A stretch of 58,981 nucleotides of DNA from an uncultured Rhodospirillaceae bacterium (lineage in GTDB: Bacteria; Pseudomonadota; Alphaproteobacteria; UBA8366). The position numbers and the translations under genes were made by a program. The DNA lies in contig CAZPFL010000004.1 in the NCBI GenBank assembly GCA_964585785.1, positions 1 to 58,981 on the forward strand, in the 5' to 3' direction. Below the pieces are notes generated by a model. That model ran no database searches, was not told where the DNA came from, and saw only the letters and a list, made by a program, of their open reading frames with translations. Below are positions 30,428 to 41,099 of this stretch, one piece after another; positions within the stretch are counted from its first letter, which is position 1, and each line of letters starts with the position of its first letter.

Positions 30428-30733
30428 ATGGCGACACCGGAGCCGGTTCCCCAGGCGATCACGCTGGCGGCCGACCGCCGCAGTCTCCTCATCGATTGGG
30501 GCGGGGGCGCGGCCGAGCGGGCGACCGCCGCGGCGCTCCGCGATGCCTGCCGCTCGTCGCGATCGGTGCGCGCCCGGCTGAACGGCTGGGCGGTTCCTGC
30601 GCCGGCGGATCTGACGATTGTCGATGTCCGGCCGGTCGGGCACTACGCCATCAACCTCGTGTTCTCGGACGGCCACGACCGCGGGATCTATCCCTGGCAC
30701 TACCTGAAGGAAATTTCGCGACCGGGAAATTAA
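30428..30733 (+). CDS. DUF971 (gamma-butyrobetaine hydroxylase N-terminal-like) domain protein
   Basis: 101-aa product from ATG 30428 (GGAGG 12 nt upstream). LLIDWGGG...VRPVGHYAINLVFSDGHDRGIYPWHYL is the DUF971 pattern as I recall it. Confidence 0.65.
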   Translation: MATPEPVPQAITLAADRRSLLIDWGGGAAERATAAALRDACRSSRSVRARLNGWAVPAPADLTIVDVRPVGHYAINLVFSDGHDRGIYPWHYLKEISRPGN

Positions 30734-30744
30734 TTGCTCAACGC

Positions 30745-30805
30745 ACGCCGCCGGATCCGTCACGGTGGCAGTGTAATGGACGGCAGGACGGAACGGCGGC
30801 GTTTC
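30745..30805 (+). promoter_or_regulatory. Extended imperfect stem-loop in the DUF971/aprA-like intergenic region (attenuator, terminator or stabiliser candidate)
   Basis: ACGCCGCCG (30745-30753) pairs with CGGCGGCGT (30794-30802). TCCGTC (30756-30761) pairs with GACGGA (30787-30792). The structure is followed by TTTC. Confidence 0.35.
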
Positions 30806-30840
30806 GGCCGGCCGGAACGACAGGTGACAGAGAGGCTGAC

Positions 30841-38509: not shown

Positions 38510-39373
38510 ATGCCCGACGCAACCATCGGAATGGATAAAATGAAGGTCACGACGCCGCACGGCCGTGAGGGCGGCAAGGGCCATGTCGTCATCGATCGGG
38601 TGAGCGTTCTCTTCGGCGACGGGCCGGACACCCATGTCGCCGTCGACGACGCATCGCTCGAAATCCGGCCGGGCGAGTTCCTTTGCATCCTGGGCCCGTC
38701 GGGCTGCGGCAAGTCGACCCTGCTCAATGCGGTCGCGGGCTATATCAAGCCGACGGAAGGCATCGTCACCGTCGACGGCGAGGCGATCGAGCGGCCCGGG
38801 CCCGACCGTGGCATGGTGTTCCAGCAATACTCGCTCTTTCCCTGGAAGACGATCCGCGAAAACGTCGCTTTCGGCCCGCTCCGCTGCGGCCACAGCCGGG
38901 GCGAATCGACCAGCACGGCGAATTCCTTCATCGCGATGGTCGGGCTGACCGCCTTCGCCGACCGGTATCCGGCGGAGCTGTCTGGCGGCATGAAGCAGCG
39001 TGTCGGCATCGCCCGCGCGCTCGCCAACTACCCGCGTGTCCTGCTCATGGACGAGCCCTTCGGCGCGCTCGACGCCCAGACTCGGGTAATGATGCAGGAG
39101 AGCCTGCTCCAGCTTTGGAGCGAGTTCAACAACACGGTGATGTTCGTGACGCACGACATCGACGAGGCGATTTTCCTCGCCGACCGTGTCGTGATCATGA
39201 GCGCGGCGCCGGGGCGAATCATTGCCGACCTCAAGGTCGAGCTGGAGCGTCCGCGCGACCAGGATGTCGCAACGCATCCCGACTTCATCGCGCTGAAGCG
39301 GCACTGCATCGATGTCATCCGCGCGGAGAGCCTGCGGGCCTTCGCGCAGCAGAATCCGGAGGTCGGCCATTGA
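38510..39373 (+). CDS. NitT/TauT-family ABC transporter ATP-binding protein
   Basis: 287 aa from ATG 38510 (GGGAAAGGAA upstream). Walker A GPSGCGKST, signature LSGGMKQR, Walker B VLLMDEPFGALD, H-loop FVTHD. Confidence 0.9.
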   Translation: MPDATIGMDKMKVTTPHGREGGKGHVVIDRVSVLFGDGPDTHVAVDDASLEIRPGEFLCILGPSGCGKSTLLNAVAGYIKPTEGIVTVDGEAIERPGPDRGMVFQQYSLFPWKTIRENVAFGPLRCGHSRGESTSTANSFIAMVGLTAFADRYPAELSGGMKQRVGIARALANYPRVLLMDEPFGALDAQTRVMMQESLLQLWSEFNNTVMFVTHDIDEAIFLADRVVIMSAAPGRIIADLKVELERPRDQDVATHPDFIALKRHCIDVIRAESLRAFAQQNPEVGH

Positions 39374-39600
39374 TTCGCATCCTTCGCCTTGAGTTCGCTC
39401 TCGCGGCGCTCTTGCTGGCGCCGCTGGTCGGATATGCCATCGCCTGGCTGCTCACCGGCGACGCCGGGCGGCCGATGCGCGCGATGCCGGTCGTGCCGGC
39501 GCGGGAAATGGGGTCGACCGTATTGCCGCCGCTCGAAATGTTGCCTGCCGGCGGCCGCGGTTCCGTCCCGTCGATGCCGGTCGGGGAGCGCCGTGCGTGA
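39370..39600 (+). CDS. Tentative small single-pass membrane protein (76 aa)
   Basis: The TTG at 39370 overlaps the ATPase stop (TTGA), and the stop at 39598-39600 abuts the cytochrome c ATG at 39601. The product IRILRLEFALAALLLAPLVGYAIAWLLTG has one TM helix and G/C-rich third positions. No homology is recognised. Confidence 0.35.
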   Translation: MIRILRLEFALAALLLAPLVGYAIAWLLTGDAGRPMRAMPVVPAREMGSTVLPPLEMLPAGGRGSVPSMPVGERRA

Positions 39601-40257
39601 ATGCCGCGCCATACAGCCCGGAGGATCGCGTTCTGTTTGCTCGGCCTCGCCGCGTCGGGGATCGCCGTGAGCACGGCGCGGGCTGACATGATCGACACGT
39701 CGGGTATGGCGCCGTGGGAGCCCTGCGCCGAGTGCCACAATATGGATGGCATCAGCCATATGGCCAAGTTTCCCAAGCTCGCCGCGCAGCGGTACGCCTA
39801 CATCGTCAAGCAGATCCATGATTTCCAGGCCGAGCGCCGTACCAATGACGGCGGCAAGATGGTCTCCAATGCGGGGCTGCTGTCGGACGAAGACGTCGTG
39901 GCGGTCGCGAAATATTTCAGCGCGCTGCCGCCGCCGCCGCCCGTGAAAACGGAGGCGAGCGCGGCGACCATCAGCCTGGGACGGCGGCTCTTCACCAAAG
40001 GGAAGCCCGAAGCGGGCGTCGACGCCTGCGCCTCCTGCCATGCCGGCGCCGGCGTCGCCGGCGTGCTGGCGCCCCACATCGAGGCGCAGCATGCCGACTA
40101 CCTCAAGAAGGAGCTGCTCGATTTCCGCGCCGGAAAGCGGGCCAACGACCCGGACGAACGCATGCGCAAGATCGCCCGCGCGCTGAGCGACGCGGAGATC
40201 GTGGCGGTCGCCGCCTATGCCTCGACCCTCGAACGGCCGCAAGGAGCTGCACCGTGA
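39601..40257 (+). CDS. Dihaem c-type cytochrome (cytochrome c4-like)
   Basis: 218 aa. Signal peptide (MPRHTARRIAFCLLGLAASGIAVSTARA), two CxxCH motifs (CAECH, CASCH) and two-domain symmetry. Confidence 0.85.
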   Translation: MPRHTARRIAFCLLGLAASGIAVSTARADMIDTSGMAPWEPCAECHNMDGISHMAKFPKLAAQRYAYIVKQIHDFQAERRTNDGGKMVSNAGLLSDEDVVAVAKYFSALPPPPPVKTEASAATISLGRRLFTKGKPEAGVDACASCHAGAGVAGVLAPHIEAQHADYLKKELLDFRAGKRANDPDERMRKIARALSDAEIVAVAAYASTLERPQGAAP

Positions 40258-41099
40258 GCGATACCTCCATCACCCGCACCTTCCGGTCTGCCGGCTACTT
40301 CGAGCCGAAGCCCGTCGGCGAGGCCGCCCAGGACCGCCCGCCCGCAATCTTCCTGGCGGAAATGCCGGTGGAAATCGCGGCCAAGGCGAACTTCCTCTCG
40401 CGCCTCAACGCCGAGGAATACCGGCGCGTGCGCGAGATCGGCTGCGAGCAGCGCATCGCCGCCGGCGAGTCCGTCTTCTGCCAGGGCGATACCCATGACG
40501 GCATCTTCCTGATCGAGGGAGGCTCGGTGCGCACCTTCTACACCGGGCCGACGGGGCGCGAGATCACACTCGCCTATTGGACGCCGGGGCATTTCGTCGG
40601 CGGGCCGGAGATCTTCGGCGGCGGCACGCATATGTGGTCCGGCGTCGCCGTGCAGGAGACCCGGGTGCTGCGCCTGCGCGGCGCTGACCTGTACCGCCTG
40701 ATGGAACAGATGCCGCGCCTCGCGCTCGGGATCGTCGAAGGGCTGGTGCAAAAAGGCAAATGCTACTCCGCGCTCGTGCACATGCTCGGGACGCGGTCCG
40801 TCATCGAGCGGCTCGCCCAGCTGCTCCTCATCCTCGCCGACACGGATGGCGAGACGGCGGCGGACGGCGTGATGATCGGCCGTTCCTTCACCCATGAAGA
40901 GATGGCCAACATGGTCGGCTCGACCCGCCAATGGGTGACGATGACGCTCGACAAGTTCCAGAAGCAGGGCGCGATCCGAATGCAAGGCCGCCGCATCGTC
41001 CTCTGCGACCGGGCCTGGATCTGCGACAAGGCCGGCATCGCGCCCGGTATGGAGGACACGGAGCCGGCGCACCCGTCCGGCCCCGTGTTTGTCCGCTAA
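40254..41099 (+). CDS. Crp/Fnr family transcriptional regulator
   Basis: 281 aa. The GTG start overlaps the cytochrome c stop (GTGA). cNMP-binding fold (IFLIEGGSVRTFYTGPTGREITLAYWTPGHFVGG) and HTH (HEEMANMVGSTRQWVTMTLDKFQ). There is no FNR Cys cluster. Confidence 0.85.
   Translation: MSDTSITRTFRSAGYFEPKPVGEAAQDRPPAIFLAEMPVEIAAKANFLSRLNAEEYRRVREIGCEQRIAAGESVFCQGDTHDGIFLIEGGSVRTFYTGPTGREITLAYWTPGHFVGGPEIFGGGTHMWSGVAVQETRVLRLRGADLYRLMEQMPRLALGIVEGLVQKGKCYSALVHMLGTRSVIERLAQLLLILADTDGETAADGVMIGRSFTHEEMANMVGSTRQWVTMTLDKFQKQGAIRMQGRRIVLCDRAWICDKAGIAPGMEDTEPAHPSGPVFVR

Follow-up and report, generated by a model that had tools for sequence, protein, structure and literature searches.

The Asf system for arylsulfonate desulfonation is genetically defined (PMC4267179), and in the asfRABC model AsfAB supplies electrons to the desulfonating oxygenase SsuD (PMC4267179; PMC2864759). 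MtPAPSR, the nearest characterised relative of the flavoprotein described below, showed no reverse activity (PMC10322725). NitT/TauT-type transporters with Cys/Sec pockets have an in-silico precedent in the SAO system (bioRxiv 10.1101/2022.07.06.499078), and DUF971 showed cofitness with Mrp, BolA and YggX (bioRxiv 10.1101/072470). For the gene cluster analysed here, we found no paper that gives it a function; nor, in agreement with a first-pass annotation of this DNA, did we find a characterised pathway that matches it.

The window, i.e., the whole stretch of 58,981 nucleotides that was analysed, carries 13 plus-strand ORFs at 30428-41099, each with a coding-type GC3 of 0.80-0.90 (Table 1). 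The co-directional arrangement, coordinates, overlaps and gaps in that annotation were all verified in the sequence: a 7-bp gap between the ferredoxin and HEAT genes, a 7-bp GntR/TlpA overlap, overlaps via ATGA (permease/membrane protein), TTGA (ATPase/small ORF) and GTGA (cytochrome c/Crp), a small-ORF stop abutting the cytochrome c ATG, and intergenic gaps at 30734-30840 and 35129-35395. The latter had been listed as the only sizeable gaps; a further one of 78 bp, at 36761-36838, separates the binding-protein (SBP) and permease genes and contains a perfect 12-bp hairpin. Pfam and NCBIfam bore out the family calls (DUF971, flavoprotein, Fer4, HEAT, GntR, redoxin, SBP, permease, ATPase, cytochrome c and Crp). 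The cluster is bordered by TamAB and enoyl-CoA hydratase genes upstream and by TctABC downstream. A sigma-54-type promoter and two hairpins split the stretch into separate transcription units, two or three at the least.

Table 1. Genes and cis-elements of the cluster, in order along the window
Feature	Coordinates	Strand	Basis or remark
Operator-like palindrome CAATTAATTG (inside GGCAATTAATTGCTTA)	30350..30359	.	exact CAAYTARTTG match
DUF971 (GBBH-like_N) protein, 101 aa	30428..30733	+	PF06155, 72 bits
Second palindrome copy AAATTAATTG	30727..30736	.	one mismatch; 5' of flavoprotein gene
Alpha subunit: FAD flavoprotein, AprA/PAPS-reductase branch, 578 aa	30841..32577	+	family NF006131 (PRK08275)
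Beta subunit: ferredoxin, 77 aa	32602..32835	+	eight Cys for 2x[4Fe-4S]; Fer4_7 and other Fer4 models
HEAT-repeat protein, 320 aa	32843..33805	+	HEAT_2, 184 bits
GntR/HutC-type regulator (HTH + UTRA)	33831..34598	+	PF00392 + PF07702; probable start
TlpA/ResA-like periplasmic thiol:disulfide oxidoreductase	34592..35128	+	WCPPC, N-terminal anchor; AhpC-TSA + Redoxin
Hairpin 3' of TlpA	35176..35214	+	13-nt arms then TTTT; possible weak terminator
Sigma-54-type -24/-12 element TGGCACGGAAATCGC	35329..35343	+	~50 bp upstream of SBP start
Periplasmic SBP, NitT/TauT family, 454 aa	35396..36760	+	"type A" pocket; NMT1_2 + NMT1
Perfect 12-bp stem hairpin, SBP/permease gap	36778..36804	+	no T-run
ABC permease (BPD_transp_1)	36839..37801	+	nearest NCBIfam SaoP, NtrB, TauC, SsuC, all under cut-off
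Uncharacterised membrane protein, 230 aa	37798..38490	+	invariant C131, vicinal C162-C163 (SWVVCC)
ABC ATPase, 287 aa	38510..39373	+	ABC_tran, 122 bits
Sco1 relic, 76-codon ORF	39370..39600	+	membrane-anchor codons, then unconstrained sequence
Periplasmic dihaem c-type cytochrome	39601..40257	+	CAECH + CASCH; Cytochrom_C + Cytochrome_CBB3
Crp/Fnr-family regulator	40254..41099	+	cNMP_binding + HTH_Crp_2

The cluster is real and is present in hundreds of bacterial species. Its core, i.e., the flavoprotein, 77-aa ferredoxin, HEAT protein, DUF971 protein, NitT/TauT importer and a Crp or GntR regulator, was found with shuffled gene order in Alpha-, Beta- and Gammaproteobacteria, Acidithiobacillia, Cyanobacteria and Actinobacteria. 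Among 65 well-flanked flavoprotein loci of other genomes, the flavoprotein, ferredoxin, HEAT and ABC genes co-occurred: ferredoxin was encoded near the flavoprotein in all 65, HEAT in 62, DUF971 in 55, the SBP and permease in 58 each, the ATPase in 60 and a Crp regulator in 43. In several phyla the importer genes lie next to or between the enzyme genes, which upholds the proposal of an uptake-plus-redox module; in Paraburkholderia, Cupriavidus and Acinetobacter they sit between the ferredoxin and HEAT genes, and in Tsukamurella the order is fd-SBP-permease-ATPase-flavoprotein::HEAT. The thirteen genes as a whole do not form a single conserved unit. The TlpA, cytochrome c and membrane-protein genes were confined to 13 of 58 loci, all with a distinct SBP pocket (type A); the other 45 are type B.

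The flavoprotein, composed of FAD_binding_2 and Succ_DH_flav_C domains, matched NF006131 at 1066 bits (cut-off 587). Its scores were 155 bits against aprA TIGR02061 (cut-off 641.75), 277 bits against NF005331 (cut-off 557), ~156 bits against the highest-scoring SdhA/FrdA model and, for NadB, 114 bits. The closest solved structure is the MtPAPSR alpha subunit (8a8o_A, 1e-62), followed by A. fulgidus AprA (1e-39). Judged by sequence, the protein is thus related to adenylyl-sulfate reductase but clearly separate from it, in line with its earlier description as AprBA-like and not genuine AprBA. In an alignment of 88 homologues, C242, C257, C354 and C500 were invariant; these cysteines are specific to the NF006131 family and line the former substrate pocket. 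Identity among phyla was 57-87%, with 156 invariant positions. The Asn and His beside flavin N5 (equivalents of AprA N74 and H398) are retained, and are invariant in the NF006131 family, MtPAPSR-like proteins and an intermediate clade, whereas the AMP-contacting residues of AprA are lost. At the positions of the catalytic AprA residues Arg265 and Trp234, the flavoprotein has Leu248 and Tyr217, respectively, so that sulfite-adduct chemistry is not assured. Cys plus Met made up 5.2% of the flavoprotein and 2.6% of the SBP (background, 3.4%); this lack of sulfur economy, together with at least two Fe-S clusters, counts against a purely sulfur-starvation-induced scavenging system.

The ferredoxin lacks the AprB tail and scored 36.8 bits against aprB TIGR02060 (cut-off 135.65); in the PDB it matched the ferredoxin domains of AprB and MtPAPSR beta. 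The HEAT protein, which matches the C-terminal half of NF010374/PRK13800, a model built on a natural fusion, is probably a third subunit or scaffold; it is fused to the flavoprotein as one protein in Actinobacteria, with flavoprotein::HEAT fusions in Tsukamurella and P0163. On cyanobacterial plasmids, Mrp/NBP35 occupies the position of DUF971, which probably helps to maintain or deliver Fe-S clusters.

The SBP scored 112 bits against SsuA_fam, under the cut-off, and all four of its PDB matches were sulfonate- or taurine-binding proteins (SsuA or TauA). Type-A SBPs share invariant H31, M34, C35, D37, Y39, W158, C201, W203, Y226, H308 and H365, in place of which the type-B pocket has Thr, Asn, His and Val. 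The nearest models to the ATPase were ntrCD, SaoA and TauB, and its orthologue in the syntenic locus L212 is of equal length. The cytochrome c, which resembles PdsA under the model cut-off, was present in 13/13 type-A loci and in type A only. The membrane protein, found in all 13 type-A and none of the 45 type-B loci, had no match in Pfam or NCBIfam, and its 41 homologue clusters are all labelled hypothetical; its AF2 model (pLDDT 78.6, pTM 0.72) had no fold match in the PDB (best E-value 1.4). TlpA, with matches under the cut-offs of the ResA and TlpA models, was encoded in six of the 13 type-A loci and was absent from all those of type B. A plain oxyanion substrate leaves the type-A Cys/His/Met pocket and the association with copper chaperones unexplained.

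The small ORF upstream of the cytochrome gene had been taken for a transmembrane-protein gene. It has no Pfam match, and its residues 10-27 align to the Sco1 membrane anchor of relatives (E = 9e-6). Compared with L212, the remainder has 20, 19 and 22 changes at the three codon positions, i.e., no bias, with 30 non-synonymous and 16 synonymous changes. Sco1 and PCuAC occupy its position in L001 and eight other type-A loci. On this alignment, the ORF is the remnant of a deleted, ancestrally present Sco1/PCuAC pair, lost at this locus while the remaining genes are under purifying selection.

As regards electron supply, 45 of 92 loci encode Fpr and 33 of the 92 encode FdxA, often divergent from DUF971 and sharing with it an intergenic region that bears the palindrome; in A. 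caldus, HEAT is followed by fdxA and by the gene of a large FAD oxidoreductase. Unlike in these relatives, the Fpr and FdxA genes are outside our window, and the module is in this respect not self-contained. The adjacency of Fpr and FdxA in relatives suggests a reductive direction. A sulfur substrate is suggested by nearby sulfite/sulfate exporters and organosulfur-scavenging genes. Two cyanobacterial plasmids encode TauE/SafE and a putative sulfate exporter directly 3' of the enzyme genes, and YeiH-type (putative sulfate) exporters occur in about 20 loci. The flavoprotein gene of Nostoc is flanked by sulfonate-binding proteins; in L214, three genes for TauD and two for MBL proteins are immediately upstream, and the Cupriavidus neighbours include LLM monooxygenase, acyl-CoA-dehydrogenase-family and SsuA-like binding-protein genes. 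Such genes adjoin a minority of loci only, as raw counts that carry no background frequency.

Two regulators are encoded. The GntR ORF is open from 33756, previously taken as its start; its start is probably ATG 33831 (255 aa), given that its 255-aa orthologue in L212 begins downstream of the HEAT stop codon. In Burkholderiales, Acinetobacter, Acidithiobacillus and Actinobacteria, the flavoprotein gene is preceded by a GntR of the same type. The Crp regulator has no FNR-type N-terminal Cys cluster and no named equivalog at cut-off. The palindrome CAATTAATTG lies 78 bp 5' of the DUF971 start, and exact copies occur at the equivalent flavoprotein-upstream position in L001, L002 and many more loci. 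In 1.77 Mb of related loci, CAAYTARTTG occurred 83 times; 81 of these copies, spread over 53 loci, were no more than 400 bp in front of a DUF971, flavoprotein or SBP gene. It was also found in Crp-carrying loci that lack GntR (e.g., Bradyrhizobium and roseobacter loci), and the Crp regulator is its probable binder. The sigma-54-type motif TGGCAC-N5-TTGC recurs at the equivalent position in L001, L002, L004, L016, L017, L026, L034 and L051. The hairpin 3' of TlpA is only tentatively a terminator, because a consensus terminator scan did not detect it. These regulators are of Crp and GntR types and not of CysB or SsuR types, which counts against a sulfur reading, and the sigma-54 promoter is equally compatible with nitrogen control.

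The best explanation of the whole, which we put forward tentatively, is an importer-coupled flavo-FeS reductase that frees sulfite from a small sulfo-anion. Gene content, conservation, family membership, residue changes and cis-elements are observed directly, whereas we infer the reaction, the sulfur nature of the substrate and the direction of electron flow; a sulfur compound is most likely, and an organosulfur or sulfur oxyanion substrate, in keeping with the first suggestion of an organosulfur or other oxyanion, remains the best guess. A cytoplasmic multi-subunit enzyme (alpha with FAD, beta with 2x[4Fe-4S], a HEAT partner and DUF971 as Fe-S helper) would be coupled to the NitT/TauT-type importer, which would take up a sulfonate, sulfate ester or thiosulfonate. 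Electrons would pass from NADPH via ferredoxin-NADP reductase and FdxA to beta and FAD, and the reduced flavin N5 would attack sulfur as in APS reductase, with a leaving group other than AMP held in a pocket remodelled with the invariant cysteines. The sulfite freed would be assimilated or, in bacteria with TauE/SafE or YeiH-type exporters, leave the cell. The cluster's Crp-family regulator would work through CAAYTARTTG, with a HutC-type GntR additionally encoded, and a sigma-54-type promoter lies in front of the transporter operon.

An unlikely alternative is that the same enzyme acts on an anion without sulfur, for example an N-oxy or nitro compound, or a carboxylate that is unsaturated or activated in some other way, the sulfur neighbours being coincidental. 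The superfamily is mainly carboxylate-acting (SdhA, FrdA, NadB and TfrA matches), the sulfate-binding Arg of AprA is absent, HutC-type regulators mostly sense carbon or nitrogen metabolites, the promoter would fit nitrogen control, and NitT/TauT importers also transport nitrate, cyanate and bicarbonate. Against this, the NF005331 score exceeds those for SdhA/FrdA and NadB, an affinity to APS/PAPS reductases; the SBP resembles sulfonate binders, unlike NrtA or CmpA; and cyanobacterial sulfite/sulfate exporters lie downstream of the enzyme genes.

Quite improbable, in our estimate, is operation in the oxidative direction, as an AMP-independent sulfite or sulfo-compound dehydrogenase passing electrons from the ferredoxin to FdxA, Fpr and NADPH, with sulfate leaving via the YeiH-type exporters that adjoin about 20 loci. 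AprBA is reversible in sulfur oxidisers, as is Fpr, and the loss of AMP contacts with retention of the N5-adjacent residues fits. This leaves the tight link of a high-affinity importer to the enzyme unexplained, and Fpr/FdxA pairs of heterotrophs normally carry electrons from NADPH; the lack of reverse activity in MtPAPSR also speaks against it (PMC10322725).

We give little credence to the idea that the flavoprotein and ferredoxin do not act on the imported compound and instead supply electrons to an unlinked desulfonating oxygenase. It matches the asfRABC model exactly (PMC4267179; PMC2864759), and LLM or TauD oxygenase genes lie close to some loci. Yet no oxygenase gene was conserved with the cluster among its neighbours, dedicated Fpr and FdxA already provide electrons, and the 57-87% identity, invariant positions and pocket-lining cysteines are typical of a catalytic site.

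For the type-A system at least, a thiophilic metal, metalloid or organometallic might be passed inward in mer-like fashion to a Cys-rich cytoplasmic flavoreductase. This would draw on the invariant His31, Met34, Cys35, Cys201, His308 and His365 of the SBP, the vicinal Cys-Cys of the membrane protein, the strict co-occurrence with Sco1, PCuAC, TlpA and cytochrome c, the SAO precedent in silico (bioRxiv 10.1101/2022.07.06.499078) and the four flavoprotein cysteines. It is nonetheless very unlikely: 45 loci pair the same enzyme (68-80% identity, same invariants) with a type-B SBP, whose Thr/Asn pocket is of the oxyanion type, and lack the Cys proteins; Sco1/PCuAC has been lost here while all else is under purifying selection; and no conserved metal-resistance genes were found near the cluster. 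A genuine APS/PAPS reductase of AprBA or MtPAPSR type, despite the overall homology and alpha/beta architecture, is effectively refuted by the sub-cut-off aprA, aprB and NF005331 scores, the Arg265 and Trp234 replacements, the missing AprB tail and the absence of sat, cysC, qmo and aprM from both the window (as noted initially for sat, qmo and aprM) and the conserved neighbours.

An importer-coupled reductase acting on a sulfo-anion would have a functional analogue in the Asf arylsulfonate-desulfonation system, which has the same layout, i.e., an FAD_binding_2 reductase, a ferredoxin and a NitT/TauT binding protein (PMC4267179).

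The flavoprotein encoded in the cluster (alpha) is AprA-like, as the first-pass annotation had it, but it is not an AprA, since it scored 155.2 bits against the aprA model TIGR02061, for which the cut-off is 641.75. It belongs instead to NF006131 (PRK08275), with 1066.3 bits against a cut-off of 587 and coverage of model positions 4-574 of 577; this family has a generic name and no assigned function. The model of the type represented by the PAPS reductase of Methanothermococcus thermolithotrophicus (MtPAPSR), NF005331, gave 277.4 bits, which is below its cut-off of 557. Among solved structures, the closest relatives of the flavoprotein are MtPAPSR alpha (8A8O, 1e-62, full length) and then A. 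fulgidus AprA. For the 77-aa ferredoxin (beta), the matches are to the ferredoxin domains found in AprB and in MtPAPSR beta; it has no AprB tail and, being a ferredoxin domain alone, reached 36.8 bits against the aprB model TIGR02060 (cut-off 135.65). As had been noted, sat, QmoABC and AprM are missing; neither the large ORFs in the window nor the families conserved around the cluster include any of them.

When the flavoprotein was aligned to 1jnr_A (A. fulgidus numbering), Arg265 was found to be replaced by Leu248, Trp234 by Tyr217 and Tyr95 by Glu, while the equivalent of AprA Asn-A74 was kept. A His in register with the GGH conserved in MtPAPSR is kept as well; we take it to be His-A398. 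The catalytic Arg is retained in the MtPAPSR-like clade (P0204, P0217, P0236), whereas the NF006131-type flavoprotein has Leu. Across 88 homologues, four cysteines are invariant, i.e., C242 (LECFQ), C257 (PACAY), C354 (GFCSGH) and C500 (ILDCADM), with two more at least 92% conserved, and in the alignments none of these cysteines occurs in MtPAPSR or AprA. Three of the four invariant residues would map to those AprA segments that form the APS pocket. An AlphaFold2 model of the flavoprotein had a mean pLDDT of 54.8 and an unresolved capping domain; the homologue alignment was shallow (~80% identity).

Relatives of the flavoprotein at ~80% identity number in the thousands. When 1.84 billion representatives were searched exhaustively, full-length proteins at 59-61% identity were followed by a clade at 36-40% and then by MtPAPSR-like proteins at 27-33%. 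The same gap was seen in a plasmid collection, with matches at 57% or more and the next at 26% or less. The family is therefore a tight island in sequence space, and identities of 57-87% across phyla imply that the reaction is strongly constrained and presumably important. The 36-40% clade (P0168, P0169, P0171, P0175, P0176, P0179) also lacks Arg265; some of its members barely exceed the NF006131 cut-off and the invariant cysteines are partly kept, P0175 having C242 and C257. The view that no characterised pathway matches the gene set held up, as literature searches on AprA-like/HEAT, APS-reductase-like, asfA, pANL/cysR, DUF971, reductive desulfonation, PBS lyase and Sao yielded no named function for the family. 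We class the cluster enzyme as a flavo-FeS enzyme of the AprBA type whose partners and pocket are new and whose importer is obligatory.

A flavoprotein relative was present in at least 588 of 185,579 genomes scanned, one representative genome being used per species, and the annotated copies examined carry generic labels throughout, e.g., "putative oxidoreductase". Experimentally tractable hosts are among them, namely Bradyrhizobium, Mesorhizobium japonicum MAFF 303099, Rhizobium, Sinorhizobium, Paraburkholderia, Variovorax, Cupriavidus, Acinetobacter baumannii, Methylobacterium, roseobacters and cyanobacterial plasmids; the 57 plasmid matches included no Synechococcus record. The neighbourhood proved to be conserved in the 65 loci with enough flanking DNA, with the ferredoxin gene in 65/65, HEAT in 62, the ATPase in 60, the permease and the binding protein (SBP) in 58 each, DUF971 in 55, the Crp-type regulator in 43 and the GntR/UTRA regulator in 23. 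The order of the genes changes from lineage to lineage, an argument for functional rather than inherited linkage. Bradyrhizobium has ATPase-permease-SBP-Crp-DUF971 divergent from Fpr-flavoprotein-fd-HEAT (Fpr, ferredoxin-NADP reductase; fd, ferredoxin); Paraburkholderia, Cupriavidus and Acinetobacter have GntR-flavoprotein-fd-SBP-permease-ATPase-HEAT(-DUF971); Tsukamurella has GntR-fd-SBP-permease-ATPase followed by a flavoprotein::HEAT fusion; and cyanobacterial plasmids have flavoprotein-fd-HEAT-Mrp/NBP35. The natural fusion, which corresponds to NF010374/PRK13800 (P0163, 925 aa), marks HEAT as a physical partner of the flavoprotein. DUF971 has been tied to Fe-S maintenance by its cofitness with Mrp, BolA and YggX (bioRxiv 10.1101/072470), a role consistent with Mrp/NBP35 taking its place in cyanobacteria. 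In Bradyrhizobium, HEAT is followed by an FAH-family gene, a sugar ABC transporter and a Gfo/Idh/MocA gene, which were set aside as unrelated, lineage-specific synteny (8-9 loci). Two cyanobacterial plasmid loci, L206 (6688-8688) and L210 (6388-8424), encode an unusually long (~670 aa) protein with a LysR substrate-binding domain, divergent from the flavoprotein gene, together with a Crp/Fnr gene.

In the window, which has 66% GC, the thirteen plus-strand ORFs reported at 30428-41099 are all present with a coding-type GC3 of 0.80-0.90 each, and Pfam and NCBIfam upheld their family labels. The junctions also stood as described, i.e., a 7-bp gap between fd and HEAT, a 7-bp GntR/TlpA overlap, ATGA, TTGA and GTGA overlaps at 37798, 39370 and 40254, and a small-ORF stop at 39600 abutting the cytochrome c ATG at 39601, as did the intergenic gaps at 30734-30840 and 35129-35395. 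There is an extra gap, of 78 bp, behind the SBP gene, and it harbours a perfect 12-bp hairpin. The cluster boundaries are right because the flanks, TamA/TamB with an enoyl-CoA hydratase upstream and TctCBA downstream, belong to other systems. For the GntR gene, 33831 is a more probable start than 33756; it gives 255 aa and matches the syntenic locus L212. The enoyl-CoA hydratase gene separates TamB from DUF971 in the window, whereas in the otherwise syntenic L212 DUF971 directly follows TamB, so that this gene represents a local insertion or deletion difference. The window carries two divergent sets of tripartite tricarboxylate transporter (Tct) genes (41103-48094), and this double arrangement is likewise present in L212. 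Elsewhere in the window, ectoine genes suggest an alphaproteobacterial host that is halotolerant or marine, a second Crp/Fnr-family gene adjoins an MFS transporter gene, and a large molybdopterin subunit is encoded.

Coordinates of features in the window
Feature	Position	Strand	Remarks
Ectoine genes	4107-6771	minus	
PhyH-type ectoine hydroxylase-like gene	4107-5003	minus	ectoine genes
ectC (ectoine synthase)	5022-5579	minus	ectoine genes
ectB-like aminotransferase gene	5482-6771	minus	ectoine genes
Second Crp/Fnr-family gene	7797-8636	minus	no named NCBIfam equivalog
MFS transporter gene	8661-9992		
Large molybdopterin subunit gene	20531-23113	minus	CODH/glyceraldehyde-dehydrogenase/xanthine-dehydrogenase family, under all equivalog cut-offs
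Enoyl-CoA hydratase gene	29494-30282	minus	
Palindrome, exact copy	30350-30359		
Palindrome, one mismatch	30727-30736		
Flavoprotein gene (alpha)	30841-32577	plus	
Ferredoxin gene (beta)	32602-32835	plus	
Sigma-54-type element	35329-35343		TGGCACGGAAATCGC, upstream of SBP gene, one mismatch in -12 box
SBP gene	35396-36760	plus	
Hairpin	36778-36804		SBP-permease gap, 12-bp perfect stem, 3-nt loop, CCCCGGGAAGGG/CCCTTCCCGGGG, no T-run
Small ORF	39370-39600	plus	
TctA/B/C	41103-44507	minus	
TctC/B/A	44653-48094	plus	

In 1.77 Mb of related loci, the palindrome CAAYTARTTG (extended GCAACTAATTGC) occurs 83 times, and 81 of these copies, from 53 loci, are no more than 400 bp upstream of a DUF971, flavoprotein or SBP start. 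The exact and the one-mismatch copy in the window are its sole matches at up to one mismatch in 59 kb. As the palindrome is found in Bradyrhizobium and roseobacter loci that have Crp without GntR, we assign the motif to the Crp-type regulator, which would act at this site. The cluster Crp has both a cNMP-binding domain and HTH_Crp_2, placing it in the Crp/Fnr family; it reached no named equivalog cut-off and its sequence shows no N-terminal FNR-type Cys cluster. At a position matching that of the sigma-54-type element, TGGCAC-N5-TTGC recurs in eight related loci, and no activator gene for the element is found in the cluster. The hairpin may stabilise mRNA or act as an attenuator, favouring SBP expression. 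Rfam searches of the gaps for riboswitches or other RNAs at E <= 1 gave just two chance IRES matches, and a scan for sigma-70 promoters and terminators performed no better than on shuffled sequence. The thirteen genes had been read as a self-contained module, but a single operon is unlikely, as the sigma-54-type element and the hairpins split the stretch; the cis-elements predict at least DUF971, flavoprotein-fd-HEAT-GntR-TlpA and SBP...Crp as separate units.

An NMT1/SsuA-like SBP, a BPD_transp_1 permease and an ABC_tran ATPase, encoded together and all above Pfam cut-offs, identify the importer as one of the NitT/TauT group. The SBP sequence shows a signal peptide, and the protein fell below the SsuA, TauA and NrtA equivalog cut-offs. 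Taking SBPs at least 60% identical to that of the window as type A and those below 60% as type B, the well-flanked loci comprised 13 of type A and 45 of type B. The type-A pocket has invariant H31, M34, C35, D37, Y39, W158, C201, W203, Y226, H308 and H365, and the type-B pocket has Thr/Thr/Thr/Asn/Val, His158, Val201, Phe203 and Thr226. The membrane protein encoded between permease and ATPase and the dihaem cytochrome c were each found in 13 type-A loci, Sco1 and PCuAC in nine and TlpA in six, and none of them in any type-B locus. This membrane protein has invariant C131 and vicinal C162-C163, belongs to no Pfam or NCBIfam family and has just 41 homologue clusters, all "hypothetical"; its structure model was usable (pLDDT 78.6), and a fold search with it returned no PDB match. 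The correlation among these type-A genes suggests that a periplasmic step in this subtype depends on thiols or copper.

The 76-codon "small TM ORF" is a relic rather than an ordinary gene, given its anchor match and the absence of codon-position bias. Sco1 and PCuAC occupy its position in L001 and eight further related loci, and its residues 10-27 align to the Sco1 membrane anchor (E = 9e-6). In the comparison with L212, first, second and third codon positions of the ORF differ at 20, 19 and 22 sites, and 30 of the changes are non-synonymous against 16 synonymous, whereas its neighbours all show strong third-position bias. The ORF has no Pfam match, and the Sco1/SenC thioredoxin-fold domain with its CxxxC copper site is not in it, the anchor segment alone being left. 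Sco1 and PCuAC have been lost in the window lineage, while the remainder of the set is still under purifying selection.

Of 92 loci, 45 contain Fpr and 33 contain a ferredoxin of the FdxA type; these genes usually adjoin the core, often divergent from DUF971 over a regulated intergenic region. In A. caldus, HEAT is followed by fdxA and a large FAD oxidoreductase gene. Together, these neighbours and the A. caldus arrangement support the reductase direction, in which electrons would pass from NADPH via Fpr, FdxA and beta to FAD. Neither Fpr nor FdxA is encoded in the window. The large oxidoreductase (L209, Acidithiobacillus caldus plasmid pTcM1, 10574-14035) is a 1153-aa "FAD-dependent oxidoreductase" behind HEAT-fdxA and may be an NAD(P)H:ferredoxin reductase fusion that serves the same enzyme.

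With regard to the substrate, all four PDB matches of the SBP are SsuA or TauA proteins. On two cyanobacterial plasmids, the enzyme genes are directly followed by TauE/SafE and a putative sulfate exporter, and YeiH-type exporters occur in ~20 loci. Sulfonate-binding-protein genes precede the flavoprotein gene in Nostoc, three TauD and two MBL genes lie immediately upstream in L214, and the neighbours in Cupriavidus are an LLM monooxygenase, a gene of the acyl-CoA dehydrogenase family and an SsuA-like SBP gene. Such sulfur-related neighbours, exporters and organosulfur genes alike, are found in a minority of loci and are taken as hints. The cluster proteins are not sulfur-poor, and this lack of Cys/Met depletion leaves regulation by sulfur starvation unsupported by amino-acid composition; the cluster regulators are not of the CysB type. 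The idea of Xsc or another sulfonate enzyme elsewhere in the window was rejected, the TPP enzyme there being PRK07586 acetolactate-synthase-like and not Xsc. Having weighed the sulfur hints against the minority of such neighbours, the sulfur content and the regulators, we infer, with somewhat less than even confidence, that the system is an importer-fed reductase acting on a sulfur compound.

A more specific proposal, which we consider rather unlikely, is that the family is a hitherto unrecognised, oxygen-independent "sulfo-reductase", i.e., a ferredoxin-driven AprA descendant that would free sulfite from non-nucleotide sulfo-compounds. It would work with a pocket lined by cysteines, or with an additional Fe-S cluster that the four invariant cysteines hold, and this would explain the dedicated HEAT and DUF971/Mrp helpers. 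Under the same unlikely proposal, the marine/aquatic subtype would add copper/thiol periplasmic capture through the Cys/His/Met SBP, the Cys-Cys membrane protein, Sco1, PCuAC, TlpA and cytochrome c. 

If the reaction does free sulfite reductively from organosulfur compounds, the sulfur cycle in soil, rhizosphere and sea would gain an oxygenase-independent route, and the analogous, biochemically unresolved Asf system (arylsulfonate desulfonation) would be due re-examination. The analysis offers a promoter motif for reporters, two SBP subtypes for ligands and invariant cysteines for mutagenesis.

Among known systems, the MtPAPSR or "AprAB-like" clade (NF005331) shares with the window system the FAD alpha branch (1e-62 over the full length) and a small beta with 2x[4Fe-4S] in which the long tail of AprB is missing. 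MtPAPSR is cytoplasmic, reductive and sulfite-releasing, which we count as a likeness, and nitT/tauT transporter genes are sometimes close by in this clade. However, the flavoproteins are ~30% identical, the NF005331 cut-off is missed, the catalytic Arg of MtPAPSR is Leu in the window family, and the latter has four family-specific invariant cysteines. In the window system, HEAT and DUF971 are partners, an importer is obligatory, and sat and APS kinase are absent. AprBA (PDB 1JNR, 2FJA) has in common the flavoprotein fold, the Asn and His by flavin N5 and a ferredoxin-type partner. Unlike AprBA, the window proteins fail the aprA and aprB models, Arg265, Trp234 and Tyr95 are missing, beta has no C-terminal tail, and no sat, QmoABC or AprM accompanies them.

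The Asf system of Pseudomonas putida S-313, Variovorax and others has the same layout of FAD_binding_2 flavoprotein, dicluster ferredoxin and NitT/TauT SBP, and asfB-like ferredoxins are 30-44% identical to that of the window. Asf is required for use of one class of sulfonates and is reported with a LysR regulator and without HEAT or DUF971 genes (PMC4267179). Both asfA primer sites, 0.75-1.2 kb apart, were found in 28 metagenome loci within L087-L164 (e.g., L089, L098, L109, L130, L143). These are bona fide asfA-asfB loci, several with NitT/TauT SBP genes near, and their AsfA proteins have LSGMEF where the window flavoprotein family has LS(N/G)(L/I)EC(F/Y). An AsfA identity for the window flavoprotein was rejected, as the flavoproteins of these loci are just 22-26% identical to it, as was orthology, since the primers asfAF1all and AsfBtoA fail or need at least three mismatches on every family locus, Variovorax included.

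SsuABC and TauABC share the three-component architecture and Pfam families of the window importer, and SsuA and TauA are the closest solved SBPs; the window SBP is ~130 residues longer and scores under their cut-offs, and its subtype adds the Cys/His/Met pocket and the Cys-Cys membrane protein between permease and ATPase. The SAO (selenocysteine-assisted organometallic) system of Clostridioides difficile (SaoA/P/X), an in-silico prediction, is likewise a NitT/TauT-group transporter with pocket cysteines and provides a precedent for Cys/Sec-lined transporters of this type (bioRxiv 10.1101/2022.07.06.499078). For the window permease and ATPase, SaoP and SaoA are the best or nearly the best models, with all scores under cut-offs. 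Unlike SAO, the type-A permease has no Sec or Cys at a gating position, there is no MerB-like lyase, and the hosts of the window family are aerobes. In architecture, the window system is most like MtPAPSR or AprBA, and in its logic of reductase, ferredoxin and NitT/TauT SBP it resembles Asf; by model cut-offs, missing catalytic residues and low identity, it belongs to none of these three.
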